A stretch of 64,000 bases of DNA, taken from NCBI GenBank assembly GCA_964016885.1, contig OZ024743.1, positions 66,030,001 to 66,094,000 on the forward strand. Direction: 5' to 3'. Each line of letters begins with the position of its first letter. The stretch's first letter is position 1. Positions 1,924 through 64,000 of this stretch are shown here, piece by piece. The position numbers and the translations under genes are program-made. Source of the stretch: Eledone cirrhosa. Lineage: Eukaryota. The notes beneath the pieces were generated by a model that saw only the letters and a program-made list of their open reading frames with translations, ran no database searches and had not been told where the DNA came from.

Positions 1924-3338
1924 GATCTGAAATCTGAAACTCTATGCCAAGAACATGGATGGGATGAAGAAAAATCTTGACCTGGTTACAACGTTCTCAA
2001 AGGATATAGGAATGGAGTTTAGCCAAGATAAATGCTCATACATGACTGTAAAGCGGGGAAAAACAATAACCCAACATCAGTCCAGACAATATTTGAATGT
2101 CGCATCATATGTCTCCGACAACATCTACTAACCTCGAAGCGTAGGAGCCCGTTTCTCGATCAAGTCTATCTGCATGAAACAGATAAGATCATGAGAGTTG
2201 GGAAGGAACTCCTTGAGAGATATTTCCTGTGTGATAATCAAAAATTCACACCCAGGGAAGATGCTCAGCAGTATCGCAGTGAATCCATGGATGAAAAACT
2301 GCATGCCTATCAGCAAAACATCATGCATGGATATGTTGCCAGGAAGCTCCAGTGTGAGAGTAATATAGATAAGGAAAGTAGTCTATCTTGGACCAACAAC
2401 CGCTATATTGGCTCCCACTTTGAAGGATACGCTTTTGCAATCCGGAAACAGGAGTTTAATACGAAAAACCTGATTCACAAAAGAGATAGGGATGCAGGCA
2501 AAACACCTGGATGTGATAACAAGTGCAGACTCTGCAGAACTAACATCGAGGATATCACCCATGTCATCAGCAGCTGTCCAAAGATGTCATCACGGTACTA
2601 TCTACCTATGAGGCATGATGTAGTGGCCAAAACGCTGTACAATGCAGTTCGTAAAAAAGATAGCCCCGATAATAAACACATTAAAAGCTACAACAATGTG
2701 GAAGACATCCATGTACATAATATAAAAGAGTACTGGTGGAATGTTCCAGTAAAAACCCCAATCAAATACAGGCATAACAGACCAGCTATTATGATATGGG
2801 ACAGGGAGAAGAAAACATGCACAGTAGTGGAAATTAGCTGCCCAGCAGATGCAAATATAATATCAAAGATTAGTGAAAAGGCGAATATTTATGCAGAACT
2901 GATGAGAAATCTGCAGATACTCCACCCTGATTACACCTTCAGATTTATGACTGTCATTATTGGGGCACTGGGATATGTTAGTAACTGCCTCAATACAAGT
3001 CTTGAGAATCTAGGCTTCACAAGAACACAATTAGTTAGGAAATTACAAGTAGAATCCATTAATGGAACAGTAAAAATATGTAAAATATTCCAAAGATTTT
3101 GCATCTAATAACTGCATATACACATGTACAGATACAAAGTATATACACATGCACACATACAACTCAAAACATACACATCCACACATACAATAACATCCAT
3201 ATCTACACTTGCATGCATACATACATATCTACCTAGTTGATGTTGTGTAAATTCCAATGAGAGAATCTTGTGTCTATGTTAGAAACGGACTCTCTCTCTC
3301 TATTGGTAAAACTTTGTGAAATTATAAAACCAGAAGAA
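1924..3338 (+). mobile_element. Second R4/Dong-clade family, internally deleted: RT remnant fused to the C-terminal CCHC+RLE ORF (2032-3108), then 3' UTR
   Basis: 1933-2040 reads LKLYAKNMDGMKKNLDLVTTFSKDIGMEFSQDKC (just downstream of the RT YxDD position). The ORF has CRLCRTNIEDITHVISSC, RHD, HNRP(A)IMIWD and VEISCP. Ends in (CATA)n. Confidence 0.88.
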
Positions 3339-8135: not shown

Positions 8136-8317
8136 GTATATGTATATTTATTAAAATAACAGATTAAAGTTTAAGCAAAGAATCGCTGCTTTCACCCTTA
8201 ACGGGATCTTCTGAAACTAACGAAGTCAATCTGTAAACGCAGAACTGGATATTTCAAAATACGTTGCAACCGGAGGAAGACAGGAAGACGATACTTTGGT
8301 TCGTGGTAACGTTCGCT

Positions 8318-9781: not shown

Positions 9782-9950
9782 ATAGACTGACTGCAGAATT
9801 TATTTATAATTTTAAATGATGTGTCTATATATTGTATAACATTAAAGATCCTTGATTAAATAATACAACCAATGTATGTGGACAATAATCACCCCACGTA
9901 ATTTGATGCCTCATTAATCGTCTCATCTCTTCCCATTATCATTGCTAGAA

Positions 9951-10140
9951 GGGCGGAGGATTGGCAGTATCGGTAGAGGGTCGGACGCCATGCTTTCCAG
10001 CATAGTTACGTCCCTTTATGGTCTGAGTTCAAATCCCGCCGAGGTTAACTTTGCCTTTCATCCTTACGGGGTCGATAAAATAAAGCACCAGTAATGAACT
10101 GCAATAATTGCCGGCCTTGTGCCAAAAGTAGAAGCAATTA
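9951..10140 (+). mobile_element. tRNA-derived SINE, family S1, with 15-bp TSD
   Basis: A box TGGCAGTATCGG, B box GAGTTCAAATCC, body GCCTTTCATCCTTACGGGGTCGATAAAAT. TSD ATTATCATTGCTAGA at 9935-9949 and 10137-10151. Confidence 0.88.
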
Positions 10141-10528
10141 TCATTGCTAGACGTTGGCAATCATAGAAAATTGCACCTACTCTCATCTGTATGACGTTGT
10201 ATGTTCCTAATTCTCAGCGGGGAAAAAAAGGTGACGTCGGTGGGCTCCGAATTCTTTACCGACCTTTTTAATGAAGCCAGTGAAAATATTTAAACGGTTT
10301 TGTATTGAAGATACAAGTTATATGAGTTGTCGTTTGGTTTCAAATATAAAGCTGCAGCTATTATCCGTCCTGTGTACTTCGTACTTTTTTCTCAATTGTA
10401 CGTGATGATATAAACATGGTTTCATCTTGAAACCTTTGGTAGGGGTAGAATTTAAGTTACATTCCTAATATAAATACTAAAATTCCACATTACGCGAAGA
10501 CTGCTCTTTACAAACACACACACACACA

Positions 10529-11210: not shown

Positions 11211-11212
<2 letters not shown>

Positions 11213-11399
11213 AACCAGTAAGACCCCGACAGCTGAGCTCAAGCCGTTTCGACGGCTAATTCTGGACTGAATTAGCCGTCGAAACGGCTTGAGCTCAGCT
11301 GTCGGGGTCTTACTGGTTCCTATTACCCACTCTACTACCTCAAGTATTGAGTACTTTGGTGCGTTATGGTCCACCTGGTTCCTTACCACATTTCCTTCG

Positions 11400-11402
<3 letters not shown>
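11211..11402 (+). mobile_element. Palindromic (arm+arm+tail) Penelope-like non-coding insertion, family P1, carrying the 3' half of a hammerhead
   Basis: Inverted arms 11211-11262 and 11269-11320 plus an 82-bp tail; GAAACGGCT..AGCTGTC^GGGGTC; inserted in (TA)n. Confidence 0.75.
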
Positions 11403-13162: not shown

Positions 13163-13787
13163 ACCGGGCGTGGATTAAAAGATTACTAGAGTGCAAAACT
13201 AATGTAGTTTGATATATTTAATTTTATTCAATCTTTCTATATATAGTTTTCATTTGTAAACGAGAAGCAACTTCCTAGTGAAAATCTAGACAACTTTTAC
13301 TTCACTTTCGACTATTCATTCAGAGATTTTGTGAAAATTTAGCAAAAAATTTGATAGGTCTTACAATTCATTCTTTTTAGTTTTGTTTTGCTATTTTGCA
13401 ACAAGGCAAACTGCAGCTTTGCTTACGATGATTATTCTCCTGAAGTCCCCCATGTTCTTAAGTAACACTCCCTTGATATTTGTGTATATTTTCAGCCATA
13501 GTATATTGCTCTTTTATTCTTTCTTTTGTTAAATATTTATTTCATAGTCATGTATAATTTATATGAGATTTGGCATGTTTGTGTTTCTATGTGGTTCATT
13601 TTATAACAAAATGGCTACCGATTCGATCCTTCTAAGTGACACGTGGTGTGTATTCTTCTATAGGTTCCTGGCTGACTAAGTTATATGTGGTCGACGTAAA
13701 CTTGGCACACACACACACACATATATATATAAAATAATTAAGTAAAATAGGTAAAACTTGGCTTCGTTTATTATAAATTATAGATAT

Positions 13788-13842
13788 ACTGCTATAAATA
13801 TTTCGGTGACAGCCGTCATTGGCTTTGACGTCTTCAGGCTGT
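13788..13842 (-). ncRNA. Type I hammerhead, family H-AUA
   Basis: Sense ACAGC-CTGAAGA-stem II-GAAAT-ATTT-ATA^GCAGT; homologous to 31042 and 56353; one stem I mismatch. Confidence 0.6.
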
Positions 13843-14080
13843 CCGAATTGGTGTGGTAGAGACGGGTACACATGTTGTTTAAGTGTGTTTTACTCCGTCA
13901 ATACTTCGTTATGTCCAGCTCCTGGTAGTGTTGTTATTTTTCTTAGTAACTGGAATCATATGATTCCAGTTCCTAAACAAACCAACCTGCGTACTTCGTC
14001 GAGTGCTTCAATCTGCATACTGAGGTGTCGGTAAACAACCAACATATACTAAAAAAAAAAAAAATATATATATATATATA

Positions 14081-14290
14081 TAACGAAGGAAATGTGGTAA
14101 GGAACCAGATGAACCACAACGCACCAAAGTACTCAATACTTAGGGTAGTAGAGTGGGTAATAGGAACAAGTAGGACCCCGACGGCTGAGCTCAAGCCGTT
14201 TCGACGGGTAATTCTGGACTAAATTCATTTAGTCCAGAATTAGCCGTCGAAACGGCTTGAGCTCAGCCGTCGGGGTCCTACTTGTTCCTA
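14081..14290 (-). mobile_element. Family P1 palindromic insertion
   Basis: Reverse-complement match to 11211-11402 with a longer central hairpin. Confidence 0.75.
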
Positions 14291-14310
14291 TATATATATA
14301 TATATATATA

Positions 14311-15729
<1,419 letters not shown>

Positions 15730-17365: not shown

Positions 17366-17369
<4 letters not shown>

Positions 17370-17960
17370 AAAAATGAAATTTCATTTCTCACTCTTAGTA
17401 CGGCTGATACTTAAATATAAGTATGTATACGTACATACATATATGTATACATGCGTACAGTAGTATGTATATACATACATACATGCACACATATATATAT
17501 ATATATATATACGTGCGTATGGGTTTCCCGAACATTTATTATAATGCTCGGTTTGTTTGTAAACAAACAGCCCGAATTATTAGCCGTACGGTGTTCGGCA
17601 ACCATCGTTGCCATTTTGTTCAACACTGACAAAGGAACGATGAACTAGTTTCTAGCTTATTAGCTGTCATCAGCACTGTATACCTTCCTGTCAGTCAATT
17701 GAACGTTTGAAAGTATATACTTTCCTTATGCATATGAAGAGTGAGAAATGAAATTTCATTTTTTCCATTTATCGTTTTCGGTACGCCCGATCGACTAACT
17801 CACTCGATATGCAAATTAGGCTGCTCAGCCGTTAATATGCATTATAATAAATGTTCGGTAAACCCATACATACATATATATATATATATATGTGTGCATG
17901 TACATACTACTGTACGTCTGTATACATATATATGTACGTATACATACTTATACATATATA
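17366..17960 (-). mobile_element. Hammerhead retrozyme-like family P2, with an inverted segment from about 17737
   Basis: Homologous to 51863-52730, 55100-55570, 56577-57706 and 62760-63327; hammerhead at 17638-17678 (-). Confidence 0.8.
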
Positions 17961-21194: not shown

Positions 21195-21561
21195 TATATA
21201 TATATATATATATATCGTTTCTGAATTTGTTTAGCAAGATTTTTTTTTTTTGTTTTTTAAATCTGAAAACGTGTGTTGAAACCGATATTGTTATACTTTG
21301 GGAGGGTCATGTTGCCAATAAGAAAGACACGCACCAGGTGCTTTCACTTCAATTTATTGTAAATTAAATTTATAAATAGGAATTTATAAATTTCCAGTTG
21401 GTTGGTTGGTTCCACAACCAGACGAAAGAACTTTGACAATATATGAACAATCGACCGGAAATTTATAAATTCCTAAATTTATAGATTTAATTTACAATAA
21501 ATTGAAGTGAAAGCAACTGGTGCGTGTGTTTCTTATTGGCAACATCACCCTCCCAAAGTAT

Positions 21562-21568
<7 letters not shown>
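21195..21568 (-). mobile_element. Palindromic Penelope-like insertion, family P3 (arm+arm+tail)
   Basis: Inverted arms about 21285-21395 and 21455-21568; homologous to 54439-55042. Confidence 0.72.
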
Positions 21569-21640
<72 letters not shown>

Positions 21641-21643
<3 letters not shown>

Positions 21644-21923
21644 CAAAGGAATTGTGGTAAGGAACCAGATGGACCATAACGCACCAGAGTCATATTTTTG
21701 GGGGTCATACTTTTTCCTATATATATATATAGGAAAAAGTATGACCCCGACGGCAGAGCTCAAGCCGTTTCGACGGCTATTTCTGGAGTCCAGAAATACC
21801 CGTCGAAACGGCTTGAGCTCTGCCGTCGGGGTCATACTTTTTCCTATTACCCACTCTACTACCCTAAGTATTAACTACACTGGTGCGTTATGGTCCATAT
21901 GGTTCCTTACCACAACTCCTTCG

Positions 21924-21926
<3 letters not shown>
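21641..21926 (+). mobile_element. Family P1 palindromic insertion (21731-21926) with extra P1 pieces at 21641-21720
   Basis: Same arm+arm+tail structure as 11211-11402. Confidence 0.75.
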
Positions 21927-22503: not shown

Positions 22504-22584
22504 AATAAGAGAGGCGGATTTATTCGTACATCTTCACTTTATTATCTAATTCTATTATACGTACTTCTAAAGAAATACGGTATG

Positions 22585-22992
22585 TTTATAAATAAACATT
22601 TAGAAAGCCGTAGCTATGCAAAATCCCCGATGACTATCGCCACCTGGCGGTGTCCAGCAGAAGCAAGGGGGACTTTCGTCGATGCATTTCGAGCTGCACT
22701 GGTACTTATCAGGACGACCCCTCCCGCTCTTGCAGCTTGTTGGACTTTGCAAACAGGAGAGAATATATAGTTTTCTCGTCTGTGTAAATGAGGTGATTAA
22801 TCTCATTTGCATATGAAGCTGTATAAGTTGGCTCACTTTGCAAGAGCGGGTAGGATTGACCTGATGAGAAACCAGTTCAGTTCGAAATGCATCGATAATT
22901 GTCTCCCTTGCTTCTGGTGGACACCGCCAGTGTTTTTGCATAGCTGCCAGTATTTTTGCATAGCTACGGCTTTCTAAATGTTTATTTATAAA
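22585..22992. mobile_element. Diverged palindromic insertion with a hammerhead motif in each arm
   Basis: Minus 22676-22717: TCGTC-CTGATAA..GAAAT-GC-ATC^GACGA. Plus 22856-22898: TTGAC-CTGATGA..GAAAT-GC-ATC^GATAA. Confidence 0.68.
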
Positions 22993-23063
22993 CGAAATTT
23001 AGAAATTCCGCATATATATATATATATATACATAAATACAGTATATATATGCATATATATGTA

Positions 23064-24736: not shown

Positions 24737-25207
24737 CATACATGCACTTATATGAACATATATGTATATCGTACATACATACATGTATACATACTTGCAT
24801 ACATACTTGTATACATATACATACACATACATATATACATACATACATAGATACATGCCTACATACATACGATATACAACCATGTTCGTATATACAAAGA
24901 CAGACACTCACTTAAATAGGTCTGGATAAGCATTCGGTAGGAAGCTGTGCCAGATAACCTATAAACAGTTAAATCACTCTCTCTCTCCCTCTCCCTCTCC
25001 CTCTACCTCTCTCTCTCTACACACACCCCGCTATTCAACCGTTTACTTTCAGTTAATCTTACCCCTCTTTATCTATTTCCTCGTTACACGGCGGCCTTGG
25101 CAACTGTAACGACGGCTTTAAGAAGGATTACTGGCAGATCATTCTGTTCTATGGGACCTCATTCTATCAATCTTCTGACCTAACTGTTTATATTATTAAC
25201 GTTGCAA

Positions 25208-25430
25208 GGGTGGTGGATTGGCAGTATCGGTAGAGGGTCGGACGCTATGGTTTGCAGCATAGCGTTACGGTCCTTTATGATCTGTATTCAAATCCCGCCG
25301 AGGTTAACTTTGCCATTCATCCTTACGGAGTCGATAAAGTAAAGTACCAGTAATGCACTGGGGTCGATTTAATCGACTTTCCCCTCCCTAAAAATTGCTG
25401 GCCTTGTGCCAATATAAGAAACAATTATTA
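25208..25430 (+). mobile_element. SINE S1 full length with TSD
   Basis: A/B boxes; ATTATTAACsTTGCAA on both sides. Confidence 0.88.
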
Positions 25431-28234: not shown

Positions 28235-28336
28235 TCTTTTACTCTTTTACCTGTTCCAGCCATCCGGCTGAGGCTATGAAGTGGTATATATATATATATA
28301 TATATATACACAATACAATGGGAGGAAACATAATAG

Positions 28337-28380
28337 TACCACTGATGATGTTGCAGATGTGCGACGAAAGAACTTTGATC
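28337..28380 (+). ncRNA. Type I hammerhead, P3-related
   Basis: TACCA-CTGATGA-T-GTTGCA-GATG-TGCGAC-GAAAG-AA-CTT^TGAT, in an element spanning about 28310-28578 that is homologous to 46050-46295. Confidence 0.62.
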
Positions 28381-28573
28381 GACTATATATATATATATAT
28401 TTATATCTGTATTTTTAACCGCTGGTCAATCAATGATAAACATTGATTGCCAAATAAATTAACTATGGAGATATAAAAGATACACAAGCGAAAACCAGCC
28501 CAAACCAAACAGTGAGTGTGTTCTGTTATTATTTCTGGCAATATTATAACAATATGACCCTCCCCAAGTATAG

Positions 28574-28638
<65 letters not shown>

Positions 28639-29408: not shown

Positions 29409-30089
29409 ATATATAGACGTTACGTAATTATCATTCATTATCATTGTAACATGCACAAAAACACACCCATCCTAGGTTCGCCTACAGTGTCTGTCTAACG
29501 GAATTCCCTGTATTGCCTCCCTAGAATGATTGGACCAAACGGAGGCTATTTATGGGCTATAACACTTGATTAATGTGTCTTTAGTGTGATTCGCCCCGGA
29601 GATTGAAGTGGAATTCTTAATAATTCGTTCACGCAGCCACATAAAATGCACCCACATTCACAGGCATAATTGAACGTGTTAGATAAGATTTTAGTATGTG
29701 TAGGCAGAAAACAATATGAGGTGGCTTTTCTGAGAGAATATACTAGTGTCAAATAGCTGCTCACCAACGCAAACATTTGGTTGCGTCATTTTTAGCATTC
29801 ATTAATTATAAACCCACATAAACACGTGGAGTTTCTTACATTCTAGAATAATAATTGATTGGTAATGTGCAAATTAATAGCCCTAATTCACTACTAATGT
29901 GATTTGTCTATTTATCTATCTATCTATTTCTCTTTCTCTTTCTTTCTCTCATTCTCTCTCTCTTTCTCTCTCTCTCTCTCTATCTCCCCCCCCTCTCTCT
30001 CTGTCTGTATGTCCCCCCCCCCATCTCTCTCTTTATATATACACGTATGTAACGTGGATAAATGGTTGTTAAACGTTGTTGATAATGAT

Positions 30090-30273
30090 AATTGTTTCTA
30101 CTTTAGGCACAAGGCCAGCAATTACCCATGCATTACTGGTACTTTATTTTATAGACCCCGTAAGTATGAAAGGCAAAGTTAACCTCGGCGGGATTTAAAC
30201 TCAGATCGTAAAGGGACGTAACTATGCTGGAAAGCATGGCGTCCGACCCTCTACCGATACTGCCAATTCACCG
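30090..30273 (-). mobile_element. SINE S1 with TSD
   Basis: GTTGTTGATAATGATAAT on both sides. Confidence 0.88.
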
Positions 30274-30354
30274 TTGTTGATAATGATAATGATGATGATG
30301 ATGATGATATATATATATCTATATATTTATCTATATATATATATTACGTATATA

Positions 30355-30879: not shown

Positions 30880-31041
30880 TATATATATATAATATTTAAT
30901 ATAGAAATGGCTTCTACAGGACTAGAACTGTTTCATTCGAAGGAAATCACGAGGAAATGATTTCCTATATATATATATGTCCCAAGACTCTAACACCATC
31001 AACACCAATAACCCAGAGCTGGCATATCTAAGAACTTACTA

Positions 31042-31097
31042 ACTGCCTGATGAGGTCATAGCCATACAATGGCTATCATCGAAATATATATAGCGGT
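31042..31097 (+). ncRNA. Type I hammerhead, family H-AUA
   Basis: ACTGC-CTGATGA-GGTC-ATAGCCAT-ACA-ATGGCTAT-CATC-GAAAT-ATAT-ATA^GCGGT. Confidence 0.8.
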
Positions 31098-31239
31098 AAA
31101 TAAAGGATTATGAGTTCATACAATTGACTTATGTTTCGTCACTATATAAAGAGAGAGAGAAACAAAAAAGGAAAAAAAAATTTTTTATTCCTCATAATCG
31201 TCTCTTTCTCCCTGTTTTTATATATATATATATATATAT

Positions 31240-31796
31240 AATTAAGTTAAAGTGTACATCTATATATGTATACGGAAGTATCAGTATGCATATATATATA
31301 CATATGTATACACACATGTGATTTATATATATATATATGCATACTGATACTTCCGTATACATATATAGATGTACACTTTAACTTAATTGTTTAAGCGTCA
31401 GTCATACAAAAGTGAGTTAGAAGCGAAACGAAATTTAATTTCGTTTCGTTATTCGTTTTTATCGTTTCCGCTGAACCGGTGCGTACAATGACTCACGTTC
31501 TATGCAAATTAGTCTGCCCACTACTGATTTTCATAGAAAAAGCATATAACGATATGTGCTTTTACAATTCTCCAGAGAAGCCGGAAAGATAGGTATATAT
31601 TGCTGATGAGATGTAATAACATCGAAACTAGTCCAATATTCCTGTCTGGCTCTCTGGAGAATAGAGGAAATGTGTTTCCTTGAAAACTCGTATGACTCTA
31701 AAACCCGGTTCGTCTGTTTACATACAGACTAGCTGGACACTCACTGTAAAGTGTCTAGTGAAAAGCTCGGTACATGTATATATGTATACATATGTG

Positions 31797-31860
<64 letters not shown>

Positions 31861-31978
31861 TACTGATACTTCCGTATACATATATAGATGTACACCTTAA
31901 CTTAATTGTTTAAGCGTCAGTCATACAAAAGTGAGTTAGAAGCGAAACGAAATTTAATTTCGTTTCGTTATTCGTTTT

Positions 31979-31981
<3 letters not shown>
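31240..31981 (+). mobile_element. Hammerhead retrozyme-like element, 519-nt unit, with a direct terminal repeat and an inverted 5' piece
   Basis: 31339-31462 is repeated at 31858-31981; an inverted copy lies at 31240-31300. Confidence 0.78.
31597..31639 (+). ncRNA. Canonical minimal type I hammerhead ribozyme
   Basis: ATATTG-CTGATGA-GATGT-AATA-ACATC-GAAAC-TA-GTC^CAATAT; all core nucleotides and stems are intact. Confidence 0.9.
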
Positions 31982-32021
<40 letters not shown>

Positions 32022-32645
32022 GTATGTGTATATGTATATATATGTATGTATGTAAATATATATATATATATATATATTCGTTTCACCTGTTTATCATATT
32101 TGTATGCGTTTTTGTTTGTGTATGTATATGTATATATGTGAGTGTGTGTGTGTTGATTTGCAACAATGTATCGTTAAACATTTGATTGACTGTTGTAGTC
32201 AGGGGAAATAATCGAACGGTAAAAATATGGCGACCTAACAAGATAGATTTCTTTGTGTATCCTCCAAGGAGTTCCAGAGCAACATTCTTAACCTAGTTTT
32301 GTTTTTCTCAAAGAAATATTCCTGTCGTTTTTACAGATGGTGTAAACATTTTACGTATTTTTTTTTTCTAGTTGGGAAAACCCTAAAATATGTAGAGATT
32401 AGGCGTTTCAGAATCAGTTTGTACAAAAATATGAGGTATTGTGTGAACTTTGTGAAAAAATTTAAAGGGCAAAAGTGACAGTAATAACATCTTTGAAGTA
32501 ACCCGAGAAACCATTATCTATCAACAGTTTGGGAGAGGTCCCTTTTTTTTCAACCACTTGCATCAATAATCTTCTGCAATAGCATGTAAGATAAGTGTGT
32601 TTTTATAGATACACAAATACACAAATTAGAGCATATGATATGCAT

Positions 32646-43120: not shown

Positions 43121-43444
43121 TGGAAATTTGATTCTGTTATGTTCAGTCCTTGTTAGGATTTTTTTGTTTCAGTGTATATATATGAACACACACATATATA
43201 TACACACACACACATACACACACTCACACACACACACACACACATATACACATACACATACACACACTTGCACAGTGTAAGCTATTATATTTTACTTCAC
43301 TTCCATTTTTACTCTTTTTTTGTGTAGCATACACCTTACTAGGACGACAACCACCACCAACAACAATAACACCAATATTATTTAAAAGCAGTTGAGAGTT
43401 CCACCGTTCATAATCTCTCACTGACGTTGTAATGTGTCTATAGC

Positions 43445-43872
43445 ATTATTAGAAGGGCGGTGGATTGGCAGTATCGGTAGAGGATCGGACGCCATGCTTG
43501 GCAGCTTAGAGTTACAGCCCTTTATCATCTGAGTTCAAATCCCGCCGAGGTTAACTTTGCCTTTCATCTTTACGGGGTCGATAAAATAAAGTACCAGTCA
43601 CGTACTGGGGTCGATTTAATCGACTTACCCCTCGCCCAAAATTTATGGCCTTGTGCCTATATAAGAAACCATTATTAGAAGGGCAGTGGATTGGCAGTAT
43701 CGGTAGAGGGTCGGACGCCATGCTTGGCAGCTTAGAGTTACAGCCCTTTATCATCTGAGTTCAAATCTCGCCGAGGTTAACTTTGCCTTTCATCTTTACG
43801 GGGTTGATAAAATAAAGTACCAGTAATATACTGGTATTTGCTGGCCATCTGCCAAAAGTAGAAATAATTATT
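43445..43872 (+). mobile_element. Head-to-tail S1 SINE dimer
   Basis: ATTATTAGAAGGGCrGTGGATTGGC at 43445 and 43671. Confidence 0.85.
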
Positions 43873-44308
43873 AGGTGTTATGACCAAATCAACCAACCAA
43901 GAAACATCATTCTCCTGCAGGTGCTGAATTGGCAGGGTCGTTACAATGTTGAATATAATGCTTTGCCTTATTCCTTCCGGGTTTCTACTTTTTGATGTCA
44001 AATCCCGCGGAGGTCAACTTTACCTTTCATCCTTTCACAGTCGTTGAAAATAGAACCAGTCGAGGAACCGGGGTCGATTTTTTTTCTGTACACATCTTCT
44101 AATTTCTCTGTTCCTCTCACTTCTTTTCTGGAAGAAATAGGCGAATTGGCAGATTCGATAGAACGTCGGATGCGGTATTCCCCCCGACTCTCTGAGCTCT
44201 TTGAGTTAAAAACCCTCCCAGACCAACTTTATTTTCATCATATCGAGATCGATAAAAAAGTACCAGTCCAGTACTGGGGTCGATAGTTCCTCTGTATCTC
44301 TTTCTCAT

Positions 44309-45490: not shown

Positions 45491-46189
45491 TATACTAAAT
45501 CTTATTTCACGCTCTACTCTATGTTATCATATGTTACAACATTGTTTTCAGTAAATATTGATTGTTGTATTTTCAATTTCAACAGAAGTTTATAAGAGTG
45601 ACAACAATAGCAATATAGACACATATATTGATATATACACACATAGACTTCTGCAATATGTGTGTGTATGTTTATATCAATGTATATATGTATATATACT
45701 CTCTCTCGCCCCCCCCTCTCTACACACACACATATATATATAAGCAAAAGGGATATTTAATTTGTTGGTAATTCAACAAATATATATGTTTATAACTGAT
45801 TCGAAGCACTCGACATATTTCTGGAGTATAATAGCAATGATATTAAATAAATGGAAACTATATTTATAAACCCATATTTATTCTATTCAAGGGTACTAAA
45901 ACTTTGATACGTTCTCATCAGATAAAATACAAATTTTGTTTTATAAATATTGACATATCCAGGAAGAAGATCTTAACAGTTCAAGTTTTTCCTGGATATA
46001 TATATATATATATATGGGTGTGTATGTGTTATACTTGGGGGGGGGGCATATTGTTATAATAATGCCAGAAATAATAACAGAACACACTTACTGTTTGGTT
46101 TGGGTTGGTTTTCGCTTCTGTATCTTTTTATATCTCCATAGTTAATTTATTTATGTTTATCATTGATTGACCAACGGTTAAAATTACAG

Positions 46190-46220
<31 letters not shown>

Positions 46221-46223
46221 GTC

Positions 46224-46267
46224 TATCAAAGTTCTTTCGTCACACATCTGCGACATCATCAGTGGTA
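46224..46267 (-). ncRNA. Type I hammerhead, P3-related
   Basis: Sense TACCA-CTGATGA-T-GTCGCA-GATG-TGTGAC-GAAAG-AA-CTT^TGATA. Confidence 0.65.
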
Positions 46268-46329
46268 CTATTATTTTTCATCCCATTGTATTGTTAAGTC
46301 TACGCCATTTTTCTACGCCATTTACCTTT

Positions 46330-47369: not shown

Positions 47370-47531
<162 letters not shown>

Positions 47532-47533
47532 GT

Positions 47534-47583
47534 GAACTGTACTGATGAAGGATTATACCCAGAAACATTAGTGTCTGCAGTTC
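47534..47583 (+). ncRNA. Type I hammerhead, singleton family
   Basis: GAACTGTA-CTGATGA-AGGATTATACCCA-GAAAC-ATTAGT-GTC^TGCAGTTC; 8-bp stem I, weak stem II. Confidence 0.72.
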
Positions 47584-47712
47584 TGTTTACAGGCCAACAC
47601 AAGAGCAAGAATAAGGAGCTCATTCTACTGACATGGCTTTAAAAATGAGGCTTGCTTCCATAATTGCAAACGAAGCGAATATTATTATTGATATTCGAAA
47701 AACTGAGTTTAG

Positions 47713-48623: not shown

Positions 48624-48775
48624 TGTATATATAGCTCTAACATTTCTAAGATACGTTCAATGTCCAAATATTCGGGATGAAAATATTCAATCTATTTAAT
48701 TTAATCTAATAAATGGATATTTGACTGGTACTTGCTTTACCGACCAACTGAAGAATTAATTATTAATATATATAT

Positions 48776-48983
48776 AGTAATAATAATAAATGTGAAGACT
48801 AAAATCCAAAGAGGGTTCGATAAGGATAAATATATATCAAATATATAAGAACCCTAGAGCAAATATTTATTATAATAACAGATGAAAATTTAAGCAAAGA
48901 ATCGCTGCTTTCACCCTTAACGGGATCTTCTGAAGATCACGTTAAGGGTGAAAGCAGCGATTCTTTGCTTAAACTTTAATCTG

Positions 48984-48984
<1 letters not shown>
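48776..48984. mobile_element. Arm+arm+tail palindromic insertion
   Basis: Centre ATCTTC-T-GAAGAT; related copies at 55577-55795 and 8145-8220. Confidence 0.7.
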
Positions 48985-49052
<68 letters not shown>

Positions 49053-51862: not shown

Positions 51863-52730
51863 GATAAATGGAAAAGAATGAAACGAAATTTCATTTCTCA
51901 CTCTTAGTACGGCTGATACGTAAAGTCGCCCGGGCATACCGAAAACGACAAACTCACTGATATGCAAATTAGGCTGTTCAGCCGTTAATATGCATAAGGA
52001 AAGTATATACTTTCAGACCTTCAATCATCTGACAGAAAGGTATACGATGCTGACGATAGCTAATAAGCTTGAGACTAGTACATCGTTCCTGTGTCAGTGT
52101 TGAACAAAAGGGCGACGATGGTTGCCGAGCACTGTACTTCGTAATTCGGGCTTTGTTTACAAACAAACCGAACATTATAATAAATGTTCGGTAAACCCAT
52201 ACGTACATATATATATGTGTGCATTTATGTATATATAAACATACTACTGTGCGTCTGTATACATATATGTATGTACTTACACATAGTTATATTTAGGTAT
52301 CAGCCGTACTAAGAGTGAGAAAGGAAATTTCGTTTCATTCTTTTCCATTTATCGTGTTCGGTATCCCCGGCCGACTAACTCACTCGATATACAAATTAGG
52401 CTGCTCAGCCGTTAATATGCATAAGGAAAGTATATACTTTCAGACGTTCAATCATCTGACAGAAAGGTATACGATGCTGACGATAACTAATAAGCTTGAA
52501 ACTAGTACATCGTTCCTGTGTCAGTGTTGAACAAAAGGGCGACGATGGTTGCCGAACACTGTACGTCGTAATTCGGGCTGTTTGTTTACAAAAAAACCGA
52601 ACATTATAATAAATGTTCGGTAAACCCATACGTACATATATATATGTGTGCATGTATGTATATATATAGATACTACTGTGCGTCTGTACACATATATGTA
52701 TGTACGTATACATACTTATATTTGTATCTA
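51863..52730 (+). mobile_element. P2 retrozyme-like tandem (427-nt period, about 1.8 units) with an inverted 5' piece
   Basis: Hammerheads at 52045-52085 (GAAA changed to GAGA) and 52472-52512 (intact core). Confidence 0.82.
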
Positions 52731-54371: not shown

Positions 54372-54438
<67 letters not shown>

Positions 54439-54440
<2 letters not shown>

Positions 54441-55040
54441 ATACTTTGGGAGGGTCATGTTGCCAATAAGAAACATACGCACCAGTTGCTTTCACTTCAA
54501 TTTATTATATATTTATAAATTTATAAATTTACAAATCTACAAACTTATAAATTTCTGGTTGGTTGGTTGGTTCCACAACCAGATAGTTGTTTATATATAG
54601 TCATAGTCCTTTCGTCACACACTCTGTGACCTCTTCAGTGACTGGAGATTCCTTTCTTTGTTTCTGTGCCTTTCCTTTCTTCTGTCCTACGCCATTTTGT
54701 TTCTGTGTGACACACAGAAACAAAATGGCGTAGGACAGAAGAAAGGAAAAGCACAGAAACAAAGAAAGGAATCTCCAGTCACTGAAGAGGTCACAGAGTG
54801 TGTGACGAAAGGACTATGACTATATATAAACAACTATCTGGTTGTGGAACCAACCAACCAACCAGAAATTTATAAGTTTGTAGATTTGTAAATTTATAAA
54901 TTTATAAATATATAATAAATTGAAGTGAAAGCAACTGGTGCGTGTGTTTCTTATTGGCAACATGACCCTCCCAAAGTATAAAAATATCGGTTTCAACACA
55001 CGATTTCAGATAAAGAATCTTGCTAAACAAATTCAGAAAC

Positions 55041-55042
<2 letters not shown>
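54439..55042 (+). mobile_element. P3 near-perfect palindrome (271-bp arms, 1-nt centre at 54710) plus a tail of about 60 bp
   Basis: Arms 54439-54709 and 54711-54981; one hammerhead in each arm. Confidence 0.85.
54777..54821 (+). ncRNA. Type I hammerhead (mirror copy at 54599-54643, -)
   Basis: AGTCA-CTGAAGA-G-GTCACA-GAGTG-TGTGAC-GAAAG-GA-CTA^TGACT. Confidence 0.82.
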
Positions 55043-55099
<57 letters not shown>

Positions 55100-55102
<3 letters not shown>

Positions 55103-55570
55103 GTACATACATATATGTATACAGACGTACAGTAGTATGTATATACATACATACATGCACATATATATATATATATATATATATGTACCTATGGGTTTAC
55201 CGAACATTTATTATAATGTTCGGTTTGTTTCTAAACAAACAGCCCGAATTAAGCCGTACAGTGTTCGGCAACCATCGTTGCCCTTTTGTTCAACACTGAC
55301 AAAGGAACGATGAACTAGTTTCTAGCTTATTAGCTGTCATCAGCACCCCGTATACCTACCTGTCAGTCGATGTCAGTCGATTGAACGTTTGAAAGTATAT
55401 ACTTTCCTTATGCATATTAACGGCTGAGCAGGCTAATTTGCATATCGAGTGAGTTAGTCGGCCGGGCGTACCGAAAACGATAAATGGAAAAAATGAAATT
55501 TGATTTCTCACTCTTAGTACGGCTGATACTTAAATATAAGTATGCATAAGGAAAGTATATACTTTCAATA
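55100..55570 (-). mobile_element. P2 retrozyme-like unit
   Basis: Hammerhead at 55308-55348 (-): GTG-CTGATGA-CAGCT-AATA-AGCTA-GAAAC-TA-GTT^CATCG. Confidence 0.8.
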
Positions 55571-56169
55571 TATATATAGTAATAATAATAAATGTGAAGA
55601 CTAAAATACAAAAAGGGCTCGATAAGGATAAATATATATCAAATATATAAGAACCCTAGAGCAAATATTTATTAAAACAACTGATTAAAGTTTAAGCAAA
55701 GAATCCTTAACGGGATCTTCTGAAACTAGTTTCAGAAGATTCCGTTAGGGGTGAAAGCAACGATTCTTTGCTTAAACTTTAATCTGTTATTTTAATATAT
55801 ATATATATATATATATGAATAATTCAATCACTGGATTTCACTGAACTACATTCTAACGGATTAACGGATTACATTGAATTCTAATTACGGTATAGACCCT
55901 ACTGAGAAAGGTAGACCATTGAATTGTATATATAATGAAGAAAACCCAAGGCTAACAACTTAAATCCATTCTTTAATTTCTACGTACATTTCTCTACTGG
56001 TGATGATAGTACATGAATATGTAAACAGTAAGTTAATCGCAAACAGTTAATTATCAATTATCAGGAACTACAAAACATTTAACCAAATTCAAATTATAAG
56101 AATAGATAGTATATCAAATGTTGAACGTTGGTAAATATTACTTTAAAAGATAATAGTGGTATACTCCAT

Positions 56170-56195
<26 letters not shown>

Positions 56196-56202
<7 letters not shown>

Positions 56203-56558
56203 AAGTTAAATAAAAGTCAAATGATTAAAATTTAGCTTCGTTTATTACTGCTATATATATTTCAGTGACAGCCATCTTTGGCTGTGACCTCTTCAGGCAG
56301 TTTGAATTAGTATGGTATAGACATTGTACTTGTCTATACCATACTAATTCAAACTGCCTGAAGAGGTCACAGCCAAAGATGGCTGTCACTGAAATATATA
56401 TAGCAGTAATAAACGAAGCTAAATTTTAATCATTTGACTTTTATTTAACTTTATTTTACACTACTCCGGAGTAACCAAACCAACCTGCGCACTTCGTCGA
56501 GTGCTCCAGCCTGCATACTGAGGTGTTGGTATACAACCAACATAAACTCAAAATCTCT
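56196..56558 (+). mobile_element. Palindrome (128-bp arms, 7-nt loop) plus a tail of about 100 bp
   Basis: Arms 56196-56323 and 56331-56458; the tail matches 13975-14050. Confidence 0.85.
56353..56407 (+). ncRNA. Type I hammerhead, family H-AUA (mirror copy at 56247-56301, -)
   Basis: ACTGC-CTGAAGA-GGTC-ACAGCCA-AAGA-TGGCTGT-CACT-GAAAT-ATAT-ATA^GCAGT. Confidence 0.85.
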
Positions 56559-56576
56559 ATATATATATATATATAT

Positions 56577-56692
56577 AAGTTGGAATAGAATGAAACGAAA
56601 TTTCATTTCTCACTCTTAGTACGGCACTTACTTAAATGTAAGTATGTATGTATACGTACATACATATATGTATACAGACGTACAGTAGCATG

Positions 56693-56724
<32 letters not shown>

Positions 56725-57706
56725 TATACATACAGGCACACATATATACATGTACGTATCAGTTTAGCGAATATTTATTATAACATTCGCTTTGTTCGTT
56801 TGTACACAAACGGACAGCCTGATTTATGCCGTACGGTGTTAAGGCAACCACGTCACCTTTTTGTTCAACACTGACACAGGAACGATGTACTAGTTTCAAG
56901 CTTGTTAGCTATCGTCACCACCGTATACCCTTCTGCCAGATGGTTGAACGTTCGAAAGTATATACTTTCCTTATGAAAATTAACGGCTGAGCAGCCTAAT
57001 TTGCATATCGAGTGAGTTCAGTCGGCCAGGCGCACCGAAAACGATAAGTTGGAATAGAATGAAACGAAATTTCATTTCTCACTCTTAGTACGGCACTTAC
57101 TTAAATGTAAGTATGTATGTATACGTACATACATATATGTATACAGACGTACAGTAGCATGTATATAGATATATATATATACATATACATACAGGCACAC
57201 ATATATACATGTACGTATCAGTTTAGCGAATATTTATTATAACATTCGCTTTGTTCGTTTGTACACAAACGGACAGCCTGATTTATGCCGTACGGTGTTA
57301 AGGCAACCACGTCACCTTTTTGTTCAACACTGACACAGGAACGATGTACTAGTTTCAAGCTTGTTAGCTATCGTCAGCACCGTATACCCTTCTGCCAGAT
57401 GGTTGAACGTTCGAAAGTATATACTTTCCTTATGAAAATTAACGGCTGAGCAGCCTAATTTGCATATCGAGTGAGTTCAGTCGGCCAGGCGCACCGAAAA
57501 CGATAAGTTGGAATAGAATGAAACGAAATTTCATTTCTCACTCTTAGTACGGCACTTACTTAAATGTAAGTATGTATGTATACGTACATACATATATGTA
57601 TACAGACGTACAGTAGCATGTATATAGATATATATATATACATATACATACAGGCACACATATATACATGTACGTATCAGTTTAGCGAATATTTATTATA
57701 ACATTC
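56577..57706 (-). mobile_element. P2 retrozyme-like tandem array (about 2.4 units of 459-469 nt)
   Basis: Unit starts at 56577, 57046 and 57505; hammerheads at 56883-56923 (core C changed to G) and 57342-57382 (intact). Confidence 0.88.
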
Positions 57707-58306
57707 ACTTACTATATATATATATATATATAGTAAAAGTAAACAACAATTACAAGGTGTACAGTTACGAAAGGTGTTAGGTATTATATATAGATACTAC
57801 TACACCAAATGACCAGCCCTGTCCACTGTCCAATTGGTCAAGTATAGATTAAAATTGGCACTCCCAAAAATTCTTATTTAGATAAAATAAACCATTTACT
57901 CATGGTATTCTCATTAGAAACCCTTTATATACTTGTTTAGCAGTAAATTGAATTACCATCTGTCATATACTATCCCCTCTCTTCTTCCTCTATTACTAAT
58001 ATAAATACTTCAATTTTTCTGATTTTATCCAATTTATCCAAAATCTCTGATGAAGTGACAACTGATTATACATTTGCTATCGAATACTTGCTAACATTAT
58101 ATGATTACGCAAGCAGCGATACATAGGTATTCCGTCTGTTACAGAAACATATGTCAATTCCTTTTTTTAAAAAAAGCACTTTCATTTTATATTCATCTTT
58201 TCTACATTTTCTCCGGAATATAATTTATACTCGTTGAGCAAACCTACACGTACGCTGTTCATCTCTAACGTAACGATATATTATCACTACATTATTGATA
58301 ACCTGA

Positions 58307-59561: not shown

Positions 59562-59866
59562 GATTAAGCTCATGTTCCTTGAGGTTACTGGAGTATGATG
59601 TAGAAGTCATGCTTCCATGTTGTAATCTAGATCAAGTCATCCAGGCAGAAAAAATCCATTGTCCCCACGAGAGGATATTAGCCAACTATTGCCAATTAAC
59701 GAAACACACGTCAATTACACATAGCTTGGATTACTTAGATCGTTAAGTAGTGAGAAATCGTACATATTTGTGTGTATGTATGTATCAGTATGTATGTATC
59801 AGTATGTATGTATCAGTATGTATGTATCAGTATGTATGTATCAGTATGTATGTATCAGTATGTATG

Positions 59867-60691
59867 TTATCTCTTTCTCTTAATTTCGAGTATATTTTTT
59901 TGACCGGCCACCTTCCTGGTGGCAAGGTTGTAAAAGAAAAGAAACTGTCATCCCTTGAATCGCAAGAATGTTTTGCAAATTTTGAAGGTGCCAGCTATCG
60001 CAGCCATTTGTAGACTATGAATTAGGGAGCTGCGCTCTTTGTCCGCAAATCCAAGTTCAGTTATACTTTGGTCCAAGCGTGTTGGTATATAACCCGTAGC
60101 TCCAATAATGATGGGTTTGAAGCTAAAGGTGTATCTTGGATACTGGATTTGTAAACTCCTCATCAATGGTACGTAGATGTCCTCCTTCTCATGTATTTTC
60201 TGACAACGTTTACATCAAGTGGGCAGCTGATCTCCACAACAGAACACGTTTTCAATGTGTGGTCCCAAACAACAATATCAGGCCGGTTGTGCTTTAATTT
60301 GGTGGCAGTTTTTATTTTCAGGTTCCACCAGTATTCCTTAGTACCATCTGTCTCAATATATTCTTCCTCGTTTGATGTTAATTTTGTTTTCCGAAGTGCG
60401 TTCCAGGTGGTTCTAGCTATCCCATCGTGTCTCATGGGGAGGTAGTAGCGAGATGACATTCTTTCGCAGCTGGCAACAATGTGGCTTACATCTTCGATCT
60501 TTGTTTTACATAGCCTACATTTATTGTCAGCTGATGGCCCTCCTCTTTTGTGTAGCAGATATTTGGTAGGGAGTTCTTGTTCCTGTATTGCATAGAGATA
60601 TCCCTCAAGGTGTGATGTTATAAACTTGTCGGAACTCCATGCCAGGCTTTTTGAGTGGTTTATCCCCTCTATGGTCTGTGTTTTACGTCTC

Positions 60692-60693
<2 letters not shown>
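59867..60693 (-). mobile_element. R4/Dong-clade 3' fragment, same family as 1101-1914
   Basis: CRLCKTKIEDVSHIVASC, RHD, HNRPDIVVWD, VEISCP; flanked by TATG/TATCAG repeats. Confidence 0.9.
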
Positions 60694-60722
<29 letters not shown>

Positions 60723-61283
60723 TGTATGTATGTATGTATGTATGTATGTATGTATGTATGTATGTATGTATGTATGTATGTATCAGTATGTCTGTATGTA
60801 TCAATATGTATGTATGTATCAGTATGTATGTATGTATCAGTATGTATGTATCAGTATGTATGTATCAGTATGTATGTATCAGTATGTATGTATGTATGTA
60901 TGTATGTATGTATGTATGTATGTATGTATGTATCAGTATGTATGTATGTATGTATCAGTATGTATCAGTATGTTTGTATGTATCAGTATGTATGTATGTA
61001 TCAGTATGTATGTATGTATGTATGTATGTATGTATGTATGTATGTATGTATGTATGTATGTATGTATGTATGTATGTATGTATGTATGTATCAGTATGTA
61101 TCAGTATGTTTGTATGTATCAGTATGTATGTATCAGTATGTATGTATGTATGTATGTATGTATGTATGTATGTATGTATGTATGTATGTATGTATGTATG
61201 TGTGTATGTATGTATCAGTATGTTTGTATGTATCAGTATGTATGTATGTATCAGTATGTATCAGTATGTTTGTATGTATCAGT
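60694..61283. repeat. (TATG)n array interspersed with TATCAG; also at 59772-59866
   Basis: Visible periodicity. Confidence 0.95.
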
Positions 61284-62759: not shown

Positions 62760-62768
<9 letters not shown>

Positions 62769-63327
62769 GTATGTATATATATACATACTACTGTACGTCT
62801 GTATACATATATGAATGTACGTATACATACATACATTTAAGTACCAGCCGTACTAAGAGTGAGAAATGAAATTTCGTTTCATTCTTTTCCATTTAGCGTT
62901 TTCGGTGCGCCAGGCCGACTAACTCACTCGATATGCAAATTAGGCTGCTCAGCTGTTAATATGCATAAGGAAAGTATATACTTTCAGACGTACAACCATC
63001 TGACAGAAAGGTATACGATGCTGACGATAGTTAATAAGCTTGAAACTAGTACATTGTTCCTGTGTCAGTGTTGAACAAAAAGGTGACGATGGTTGCCTGA
63101 ACACTGTACGGCGTAATTCGGGCTGTTTGTTTACAAATAAACCGAGTATTATAATAAATGTCCGGTAAACCCATACGTACATATATATATATATGTGCAT
63201 GTATGTATATATATACATACTACTGTACGTCTGTATACATATATGTATGTACGTATACATACATATATTTAAGTAGCAGCCGTACTAAGAGTGAGAAATG
63301 AAATTTCGTTTCATTCTTTTCCATTTA
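62760..63327 (+). mobile_element. P2 retrozyme-like element (432-nt period, about 1.3 units)
   Basis: TACTAAGAGTGAGAAATG at 62851 and 63283; hammerhead at 63016-63056. Confidence 0.82.
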
Positions 63328-64000
63328 TATATATATATATAAATATATATATAAATATAAATATGTGTGTGTGTCAGTATATTCATATATATATATATAT
63401 ATGTATATATTCGCGTGTGTATGTCTGTGTGTTTGTAAAAAAAAATATATATATAATGTAAATGATTGAACTGACAGAGTAACCTACATGCCGTCGAAAC
63501 ATCCATAATCTCACATTGGCAATATATTTTGTGTACATTACTAGGTGACTTTCTTTGTTTCTGTAACAATCTAAACTATAATAAAGTAAGGAGTGCGGGA
63601 CCGCGTCTAGAATATATTTAAAAAAAATAAATAATGAATGAATATTACATAATTTATCTACTAAATTTCGTTATTCTTGATTAAATATTTTTGCTTATTT
63701 TAAGATCCAATTCATTAAAATTCTCATATGTCAAAACTTCCGGTTAGCGACCGCTTAAATAAACATTCATATATTTCCGTCACTAATTTTCTATCGTCTT
63801 TTTTTAATGTATCATGATTACGTTACTGATTACATAAGACAGTGTAACGCAGTCTTCGTTCAATTTCTGTGTATATTGTCAATTACGATTTTATTTGATG
63901 TATCTTAACTACATGCATATATGCTTGCGTATAATATCAATGTACATTACACATGCTATCAATGCACATTACACATGCTAGTTTTATTTGATGGAAGCAA

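Follow-up and report, generated by a model that had tools for sequence, protein, structure and literature searches.

A probable non-LTR retrozyme in Eledone cirrhosa whose insertion ends resemble those of Penelope-like elements

Positions 31240-31981 of the window (the whole 64,000-nt stretch of Eledone cirrhosa DNA analysed here) probably hold a retrotransposed, scattered copy of a non-autonomous non-LTR retrozyme that was mobilised in the way Penelope-like elements (PLEs) are, a reading to which we give a probability of roughly 0.7. The insertion carries a canonical type I hammerhead ribozyme in a closed, non-coding repeat unit, shares most of that unit with five other loci in the window, and ends at two preferred sites, here called A and B.

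Structure of the insertion

A 519-nt monomer is present in 1.27 units at the locus, together with an inverted arm, and the whole is embedded in (TA)n (Table 1). A sequence-only reading of this DNA had proposed a 519-nt unit, a direct terminal repeat of about 124 bp and an inverted 5' piece, and all three were borne out. The period of 519 follows from the direct repeat 31321-31462 = 31840-31981; the terminal repeat runs from 31339 onward and matches 31858-31981 with a single mismatch when the AT run is excluded; and the inverted piece is an arm at 31240-31320 that mirrors 31313-31388. Because the upstream and downstream repeats differ at just one of 124 non-microsatellite positions, the insertion appears to be fairly young. 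Both flanks are TA repeats, so a target-site duplication is not readable. No ORF of 130 aa overlaps the element, and the one 65-aa frame within it that was scanned had no Pfam match. Only one ribozyme is present, and since a single ribozyme cannot cut out a monomer, we regard the locus as a product of RNA circles and not as their source.

Table 1. Features of the insertion and of related loci (positions are those of the window; a slash marks the last base of the element)
Feature	Position	Strand	Remarks
Left (TA)n flank	31223-31239		target-site duplication, if any, masked by repeat
Inverted arm	31240-31320	-	outer end at site A (corresponds to 31388); forward end reaches 74 nt further
Palindrome CACATGTG	31313-31320		inversion junction, common to both arms
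Partial upstream repeat, 0.27 unit	31321-31462	+	124 bp from 31339 against 31858-31981, one mismatch
One full 519-nt monomer	31463-31981	+	33% GC
ACTCAC block	31491-31496	+	5' arm of long-range helix with GTGAGT 31931-31936; kept in P2
Conserved hairpin	31501-31535	+	5' arm with octamer ATGCAAAT at 31502-31509; candidate snRNA-type promoter element
Hairpin with TATA-like stretch inside	31538-31563	+	P2 hairpin at same position
Outer extension of helix I	31567-31662	+	11-bp arms 31567-31577/31652-31662; P2 has equivalent stem of other sequence
Canonical type I hammerhead	31591-31643	+	3-bp distal helix, TAT bulge, 6-bp helix I, core, helix II, 1-bp helix III
Long-range helix, 7 bp	31690-31926	+	31690-31696/31920-31926; two pairs changed on both sides against P2
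AU-repeat hairpin, expanded (AT)n run	31770-31895	+	explains much of length excess over P2
Small hairpin, loop holding site A	31896-31914	+	site A at 31907; 31388 in upstream repeat
GAAA..TTTC hairpin just upstream of site B	31941-31969	+	also 31422-31450; possible site of RT binding
Site B, forward 3' end TTTTTAT/	31975-31981	+	TAT matches flank
Right TA-rich flank	31982-32077		
P2, 2.5 units of 459 nt, two ribozymes (one core-changed)	56575-57710	-	end at site B
P2-family locus, ~1.3 units of 432 nt	62760-63328	+	end at site B; left boundary placed roughly
P2-family locus, two ribozymes 427 nt apart (one core-changed)	51863-52722	+	inverted arm end at site B, forward end near site A
P2-family locus, rearranged	17366-17955	-	forward end 5 nt before site B, inverted arm end at site A
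P2-family locus, exception	55098-55568	-	forward end ~8 nt before site A, inverted arm end elsewhere

The hammerhead ribozyme

The GUC hammerhead that had been seen at 31597-31639 is indeed intact, with its core at 31603-31633 and cleavage predicted after 31633. Its conserved parts are CTGATGA (31603-31609), GAAA (31624-31627) and GTC (31631-31633), so that the CUGANGA, GAAA and NUH signatures of the canonical metazoan type I class are all present. Helix I pairs 31597-31602 with 31634-31639, helix II pairs 31610-31614 with 31619-31623, and helix III is a single base pair capped by a palindromic CTAG (ACTAGT, 31627-31632). This geometry (helix I of 6 bp, helix II of 4-5 bp, helix III of 1 bp plus CTAG) fits the canonical metazoan motif, which is described as having a helix I of 6 bp, a helix II of about 4 bp and a helix III of 1-2 bp with a palindromic loop, and which in this palindromic-loop form needs a second copy for efficient cleavage (PMC4209133).

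An Rfam scan of the whole window gave zero matches at the gathering score. The full Hammerhead_HH9 model (RF02275) nevertheless aligns to 31585-31655 with 34.9 bits and an E value of 1.2e-7, below its 52-bit cut-off; the bulge, the 6-bp helix I and loop II line up along the full length of the model, and helix III is 5 nt shorter in the 519-nt element. Since the bulge is among these aligned nucleotides and is invariant in all eight ribozyme copies, we infer a tertiary contact between loop 1 and loop 2 in the ribozyme at 31591-31643. Across the eight copies 92.5% of 120 helix cells are paired, a level reached by two of 500 shuffles. Five of the 15 ribozyme pairs are changed on both sides, and because all five separate the 519-nt element from P2 they amount to one lineage contrast. 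A covariance model of the ribozyme recovered its eight input copies at six loci in the window together with one weak match, and no second copy of the exact 519-nt subfamily in the 64 kb.

In terms of folding energy the two loci disagree: at 52 kb a double hammerhead gains 1.9 kcal/mol over two single ones, and at P2 it loses 4.1. In free ensembles the palindrome duplex does not exceed a probability of 0.02, and other pairings emerged on co-folding. A blocked state in which CUG pairs with UAG is predicted with a probability of 0.95 in the 519-nt element and of 0.06-0.97 in five relatives; it may be a nearest-neighbour artefact, and we treat it as a lead only.

Stem I had also been proposed to be extended by pairing of 31567-31585 with 31645-31662. 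Both arms lie at these positions and form the 11-bp stem, but the 7-bp register did not hold, as the minimum free energy (MFE) structure pairs 31587-31593 with 31641-31647. The segment 31560-31670 folds at -41.5 kcal/mol (z -6.2), and none of 200 shuffles folds as well. We considered this outer helix as a separate blocker of the ribozyme and rejected the idea, because the helix runs continuous with helix I; it would instead keep the two ends of a cut monomer together.

The P2 family and conservation of the RNA fold

Five other loci in the window, at 17, 52, 55, 57 and 63 kb, make up the P2 family. The distant kinship of the 519-nt element with P2, previously based on short blocks, is substantiated by a 390-nt homologous stretch (63% identity over 362 columns, z 14.9) that covers most of the unit and not the blocks alone. 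The four P2-family loci that were compared are 87-93% identical to one another and 64-67% identical to the 519-nt element. An inverted arm occurs at three of the five. In the 17-kb copy (17366-17955) there are several switches of orientation, which suggests repeated template jumps within one insertion. Because both two-ribozyme loci have a core change in one copy, the source copies would lie elsewhere.

When the monomers are folded as circles, a check suggested together with the original observation, the 519-nt unit and P2 show the same order of helices. The 519-nt circle has an MFE of -179.3 kcal/mol with 71% of its bases paired (z -13), and without the AU repeat the z score is -10.6. Outside that repeat, 67 of 95 aligned base pairs are still pairable in P2, where uniform divergence would leave 52.5 (P 0.0016), and 71 of 90 in the 63-kb copy, where it would leave 50.8 (0 of 5000); double changes alone give P 0.008 against one relative and P 0.10 against the other. 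By this comparison the whole RNA fold, beyond the ribozyme alone, is under selection.

We give practically no weight to the view that the locus is a decayed satellite, or a foldback made by microsatellite slippage, in which a ribozyme-like motif arose by chance. A region so rich in AT repeats does yield many spurious hairpin matches, but eight ribozyme copies at six loci, their compensatory pairs and the strength of the fold outside the repeats all speak against it. Some miRNA-like matches at the locus, by comparison, were rejected, since they arise from the inverted arm and the AT repeats.

The short blocks shared with P2 are real and present in both families. Their reading as cis signals in the DNA is mostly unnecessary, since in both families ACTCAC, GAAATTT.ATTTC and TATGCAAATTAG prove to be arms of helices, TATGCAAATTAG forming the 5' side of a 12-bp hairpin. 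Recognition by a reverse transcriptase (RT) near the element end survives in modified form, and an internal promoter remains a candidate (see below). Five identity runs of 9 or more exceed what uniform divergence would give (P 0.003-0.03).

Two preferred insertion ends

The 3' end of the element, TTTTTAT/CG, had been thought homologous to that of P2, and P2 and the 63-kb locus do end on the same base. We counted ten outer ends at six loci as RT starts, excluding internal junctions and the ends at 57710 and ~62760, which are plain 5' truncations; positions were placed by hand, and site A is fuzzy by 5-10 nt. Five of the ten fall inside a 7-nt window at site B, three of them exactly at TTAT/CG, a concentration with P 5e-5 if ends are uniform, 0.0012 if they are confined to TA/AT sites and 0.034 if confined to TAT sites. 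Three more lie at site A, one about 8 nt before A, and one elsewhere. Taken together, eight of the ten are contained in two 11-nt windows (P 0.0008 under the TA/AT null, 0.031 under the TAT null); with six loci, the strictest null leaves clustering at two sites with borderline significance (P 0.03-0.06). The proposal of RT recognition at the conserved end thus stands for site B and has to be modified for the second cluster 50-75 nt upstream.

The distance from A to B is 74 nt in the 519-nt element and 51-61 nt in the P2 family. Site A is the loop of a small hairpin that is kept in both families upstream of site B, and both sites are predicted to be unpaired in P2 and partly so in the 519-nt element. 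At three of the four loci with an inverted arm (31240-31981, 17 kb and 52 kb, but not 55 kb) each site accounts for one end: the forward end is at or near B and the inverted end at A at 31240-31981 and 17 kb, and the arrangement is reversed at 52 kb. Eight of the ten outer ends run into TA repeats, and both 52-kb ends run into other AT-rich sequence. The short ends of site A type at 31240 and at 56200, the latter in a repeat described below, show nearly the same 12-nt U-rich word; both are AT-rich and the likeness is possibly due to chance.

Site B in the 519-nt element is a T5 run behind a stable hairpin, which is what would be expected if the ends were the 3' ends of a linear, SINE-like Pol III transcript stopping at a T run. 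We hold this to be highly improbable and rejected a Pol III terminator as the cause of the end: P2 ends on the same base with no preceding T run, copies exceed one unit and are circularly permuted, and site A would be left unexplained.

A candidate mobiliser and a proposed mechanism

Insertions of PLEs characteristically show partial tandems, an inverted 5'-truncated copy, a tail of 30-40 bp at one end only, a bias for (TA)n and palindromes at junctions (PMC8557442, PMC3846280). The insertion at 31240-31981 carries each of these marks, namely a partial tandem, an inverted 5' arm, a one-sided tail, a (TA)n target and the junction palindrome at 31313-31320, although the tails at these loci, of 50-75 nt, are longer than published ones. 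Among window remnants with PLE-type ribozymes the one-sided extension is 99 nt at 56.3 kb and, judged by eye, ~80-100 nt in two more families; long tails seem normal in this genome, the PLE identity of those remnants being putative. A PLE protein cuts both strands of AT-rich DNA, and the two positions inside the RNA at which its cDNA starts delimit the tail (PMC11167929). In the one PLE tested in vitro the RT start site was not homologous to the target (PMC11167929); site B, by contrast, has TAT in common with its flank. The pattern of ends at A and B points to a Penelope-type enzyme as the copier of such RNA circles. Octopus vulgaris has recently active PLEs, with 336 insertions (PMC13282606); the 150 longest of 250 filtered ORFs in our window gave no match to a GIY-YIG domain or a PLE RT.

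A LINE, for instance Dong-R4 or another element with a restriction-like endonuclease, could alternatively have copied the retrozyme by target-primed reverse transcription, with the inversions arising by twin priming. The window does contain LINE remnants with zf-RVT, and the hairpin just before the 3' end and the TAT microhomology would suit LINE-type priming; a 3'-end hairpin combined with microhomology priming is established behaviour of LINEs and SINEs. Dong-R4 is moreover very active in O. vulgaris, with 1129 recent insertions (PMC13282606). We nevertheless consider a LINE a distinctly unlikely copier, because the LINE remnants at 1101-1923 and 59858-60693 adjoin (TACA)n/(TATG)n arrays and not (TA)n, the element is without a poly(A) or repeat tail of its own, and a second, fixed end site together with a tail on one side has been described for PLEs (PMC8557442, PMC3846280, PMC11167929).

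The insertion anatomy, being PLE anatomy, would also fit a pseudo-LTR remnant of an autonomous PLE that lost its ORF by 5' truncation, in which case there would be no circle-forming retrozyme; some PLEs do bear canonical hammerheads (PMC4209133). Several features make this very unlikely. Units follow one another directly, head to tail (at 56575-57710, 2.5 units of 459 nt), and past site B the sequence continues round the unit with no long ORF. The unit folds closed, with a long-range helix kept by compensatory change, and no ORF for an RT or GIY-YIG domain was found in 31240-31981. Finally, the ribozyme has a tertiary-contact geometry that is missing from the minimal ribozymes of metazoan PLEs as given in the accessible text of PMC4209133 and PMC7761336.

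For a retrozyme copied by a PLE enzyme, we propose the following course. A source locus of two or more units would be transcribed into a multimer, from which the ribozymes would release a monomer. They would probably act as a double hammerhead, given that helix III has just 1 bp and a palindrome. The helix I extension would hold the monomer ends and a host ligase would circularise them. A PLE RT/endonuclease would nick AT-rich DNA on both strands, cDNA would begin at two places within the circle, B (which follows the GAAA hairpin) and A (the hairpin loop 74 nt upstream), and rolling reverse transcription would yield a forward arm of more than one unit and a short inverted arm that has no tail. 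The multimer transcript, cleavage, ligation and rolling reverse transcription are modelled on known families, and two-site priming by a PLE protein on the ends at these loci.

A more far-reaching version would make retrozymes self-contained parasites of PLEs with their own snRNA-type Pol II promoter, cutting only as dimers, silenced as monomer circles by pairing of the CUAG loop with the CUG core, and equipped with a structured domain (site A hairpin, ACTCAC/GTGAGT helix, GAAA hairpin, site B) that sets two PLE cDNA starts. We think it unlikely that all of these parts hold jointly. If they did, the loci would offer direct genomic traces of what mobilises retrozymes and of initiation at two sites of a circular RNA foreign to the PLE. 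The 519-nt element and P2 give base-level predictions for the two RT start sites and for the candidate octamer discussed below, and the two-start prediction is directly testable, as a PLE protein is already active in vitro (PMC11167929).

The octamer and transcription

The octamer takes part in snRNA promoters, and the promoter of newt satellite 2 includes it. This satellite has an snRNA-type Pol II promoter, as cited in PMC2220036. The exact octamer is present at all six loci (seven copies), with G>A in one further copy, and sits in a hairpin arm. Its arm is identical in five of six aligned copies and the partner arm varies at four of 12 positions; two of these four changes break a pair, and zero are compensatory. 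The asymmetry favours a role for this candidate element at the level of its sequence. An octamer is expected by chance in 519 nt with a probability of 0.037. Of 12 octamers in the window, five lie outside these elements, where chance predicts 5.5. Since the 12-nt identity run is unremarkable by itself (P 0.12-0.38) and the off-element octamers are at chance level, we do not accept the octamer as a proven promoter. A functional snRNA-type Pol II promoter in the element is possible on these sequence grounds, with the odds somewhat against it. No snRNA gene was found inside the window by the Rfam scan, no mollusc PSE in the literature search, and no locus when the octamer block was scanned against GTDB.

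Pol III terminates at T runs, and because runs of 4-6 T occur in all five units checked, Pol III read-through is argued against. A TGACTCA site, which we take to be AP-1-like, is found only in the 519-nt element.

Relation to known retrozymes

Metazoan non-LTR retrozymes have been described from coral, mussel and axolotl (Cervera and de la Pena 2020, PMC7229834). The present element resembles them in its type I hammerhead within a short, low-GC, non-coding and self-paired unit, in its partial or full tandems and in the presence of PLE-type ribozymes in the same genome. Its GC content of 33% lies below the 45-50% of the class, its ribozyme stands in a tandemly repeated unit (1.27 units here, 2.5 in P2), and its predicted circular fold is stable. 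It differs in size, the published repeats being 150-450 bp and the RNAs 170-400 nt against 519 nt here and 427-459 in the P2 family (PMC7229834). The 519-nt unit thus falls outside a range that is descriptive and not a mechanistic criterion, and does so with its expanded (AT)n run included; the sister units measure 427, 432 and 459 nt. It differs further in being dispersed, with 1-2.5 units, inverted arms and two preferred end sites, a combination not described in the accessible text of PMC7229834.

Newt satellite 2 and the axolotl HHR_Amex1 likewise have a 1-bp helix III with a palindromic tetraloop and are expected to act as dimers (PMC7229834); they belong to another host phylum, have a 330-bp monomer, and are likened here by description and not by sequence. 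Palindromic helix III has also been noted for repeat-type hammerheads (PMC3088659). With endonuclease-bearing (EN+) PLEs the element shares the partial tandem, inverted 5' arm, one-end tail, (TA)n targets, junction palindrome and a hammerhead (PMC8557442, PMC11167929, PMC3846280), and it differs from them in that it lacks an ORF and has a ribozyme of the canonical type where theirs is minimal, a tail of 50-75 nt and not 30-40 bp, and a closed repeat unit.

According to the accessible text of the review PMC7761336, animal retrozymes have no promoter and no motif pointing to a partner, and their copying enzyme and transcription are open questions. PLEs have already been proposed, without proof, as their mobiliser. 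Animal retrozymes make abundant circular RNAs. In the giant squid 235 unannotated Rfam hammerhead matches have been reported, as a count only (PMC6962438). Our literature search, which did not extend to Repbase, most subscription journals or the supplement of PMC7229834, returned no description of an octopus or other cephalopod retrozyme of this family, and ribozymes and retrozymes are absent from the main text of the O. vulgaris repeat paper (PMC13282606). The class is therefore known, and the 519-nt element is an added member, larger than the stated size range, with a footprint that makes the partner question testable.

Other repeats in the window

The window has 26-47% GC and is rich in microsatellites. 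LINE remnants with a zf-RVT or weak RVT_1 match lie beside (TACA)n arrays at 921-1930, 2032-3108 and 59858-60864; by their motifs we take them to be of the restriction-like endonuclease type. For the one at 2032-3105, an Octopus bimaculoides protein with 55% identity is the only named animal among 38 homologues. An abundant 200-bp SINE-like family with a tRNA-like head occurs at 9934-10145 and again at some 12 further places (e.g. 25187-25430, 30079-30275 and 43441-43874); ARAGORN called no tRNA genes in the window, the SINE-like heads included. A 273-aa stop-to-stop frame at 14637-15458 had no Pfam match at E 0.01, and by its motifs presumably resembles a decayed Tc1/mariner transposase.

Several further families fold back or carry hammerhead-like cores. 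A PLE-type hammerhead family with a long helix II, a 5-bp helix I and an AT palindrome in helix III is found at 56200-56555, 13720-14060 and 30979-31140; at 56.3 kb two of its copies face opposite ways (56296/56358), 62 nt apart, with the 99-nt extension on one arm only, and the copy at 31047 lies ~190 nt to the left of 31240-31981. TA-flanked families with inverted arms comprise one at 8148-8219, 48770-48985 and 55575-55800, in which one arm extends ~95 nt further, the hammerhead-like core is degenerate and the last copy shares a TA flank with the 55-kb retrozyme copy, and a foldback family at 11211-11400, 14083-14291 and 21643-21924, with a one-sided extension of ~80 nt, in which no hammerhead was recognised. 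A 410-bp imperfect inverted repeat (70%) at 22584-22993 has, at 22861, a hammerhead-like core whose helix III is palindromic, together with a mirror copy that is degenerate. A weak match to a ribozyme model (19 bits, E 0.03) at 47527-47587, directly after a long TA tract, is hammerhead-like and belongs to another family. Lastly, a TA-flanked repeat at 28310-28575 and 46027-46294 has a CTGATGA...GAAA core with a long helix II near 28345, and its end resembles the inverted family at 21216-21565 and 54433-55063.
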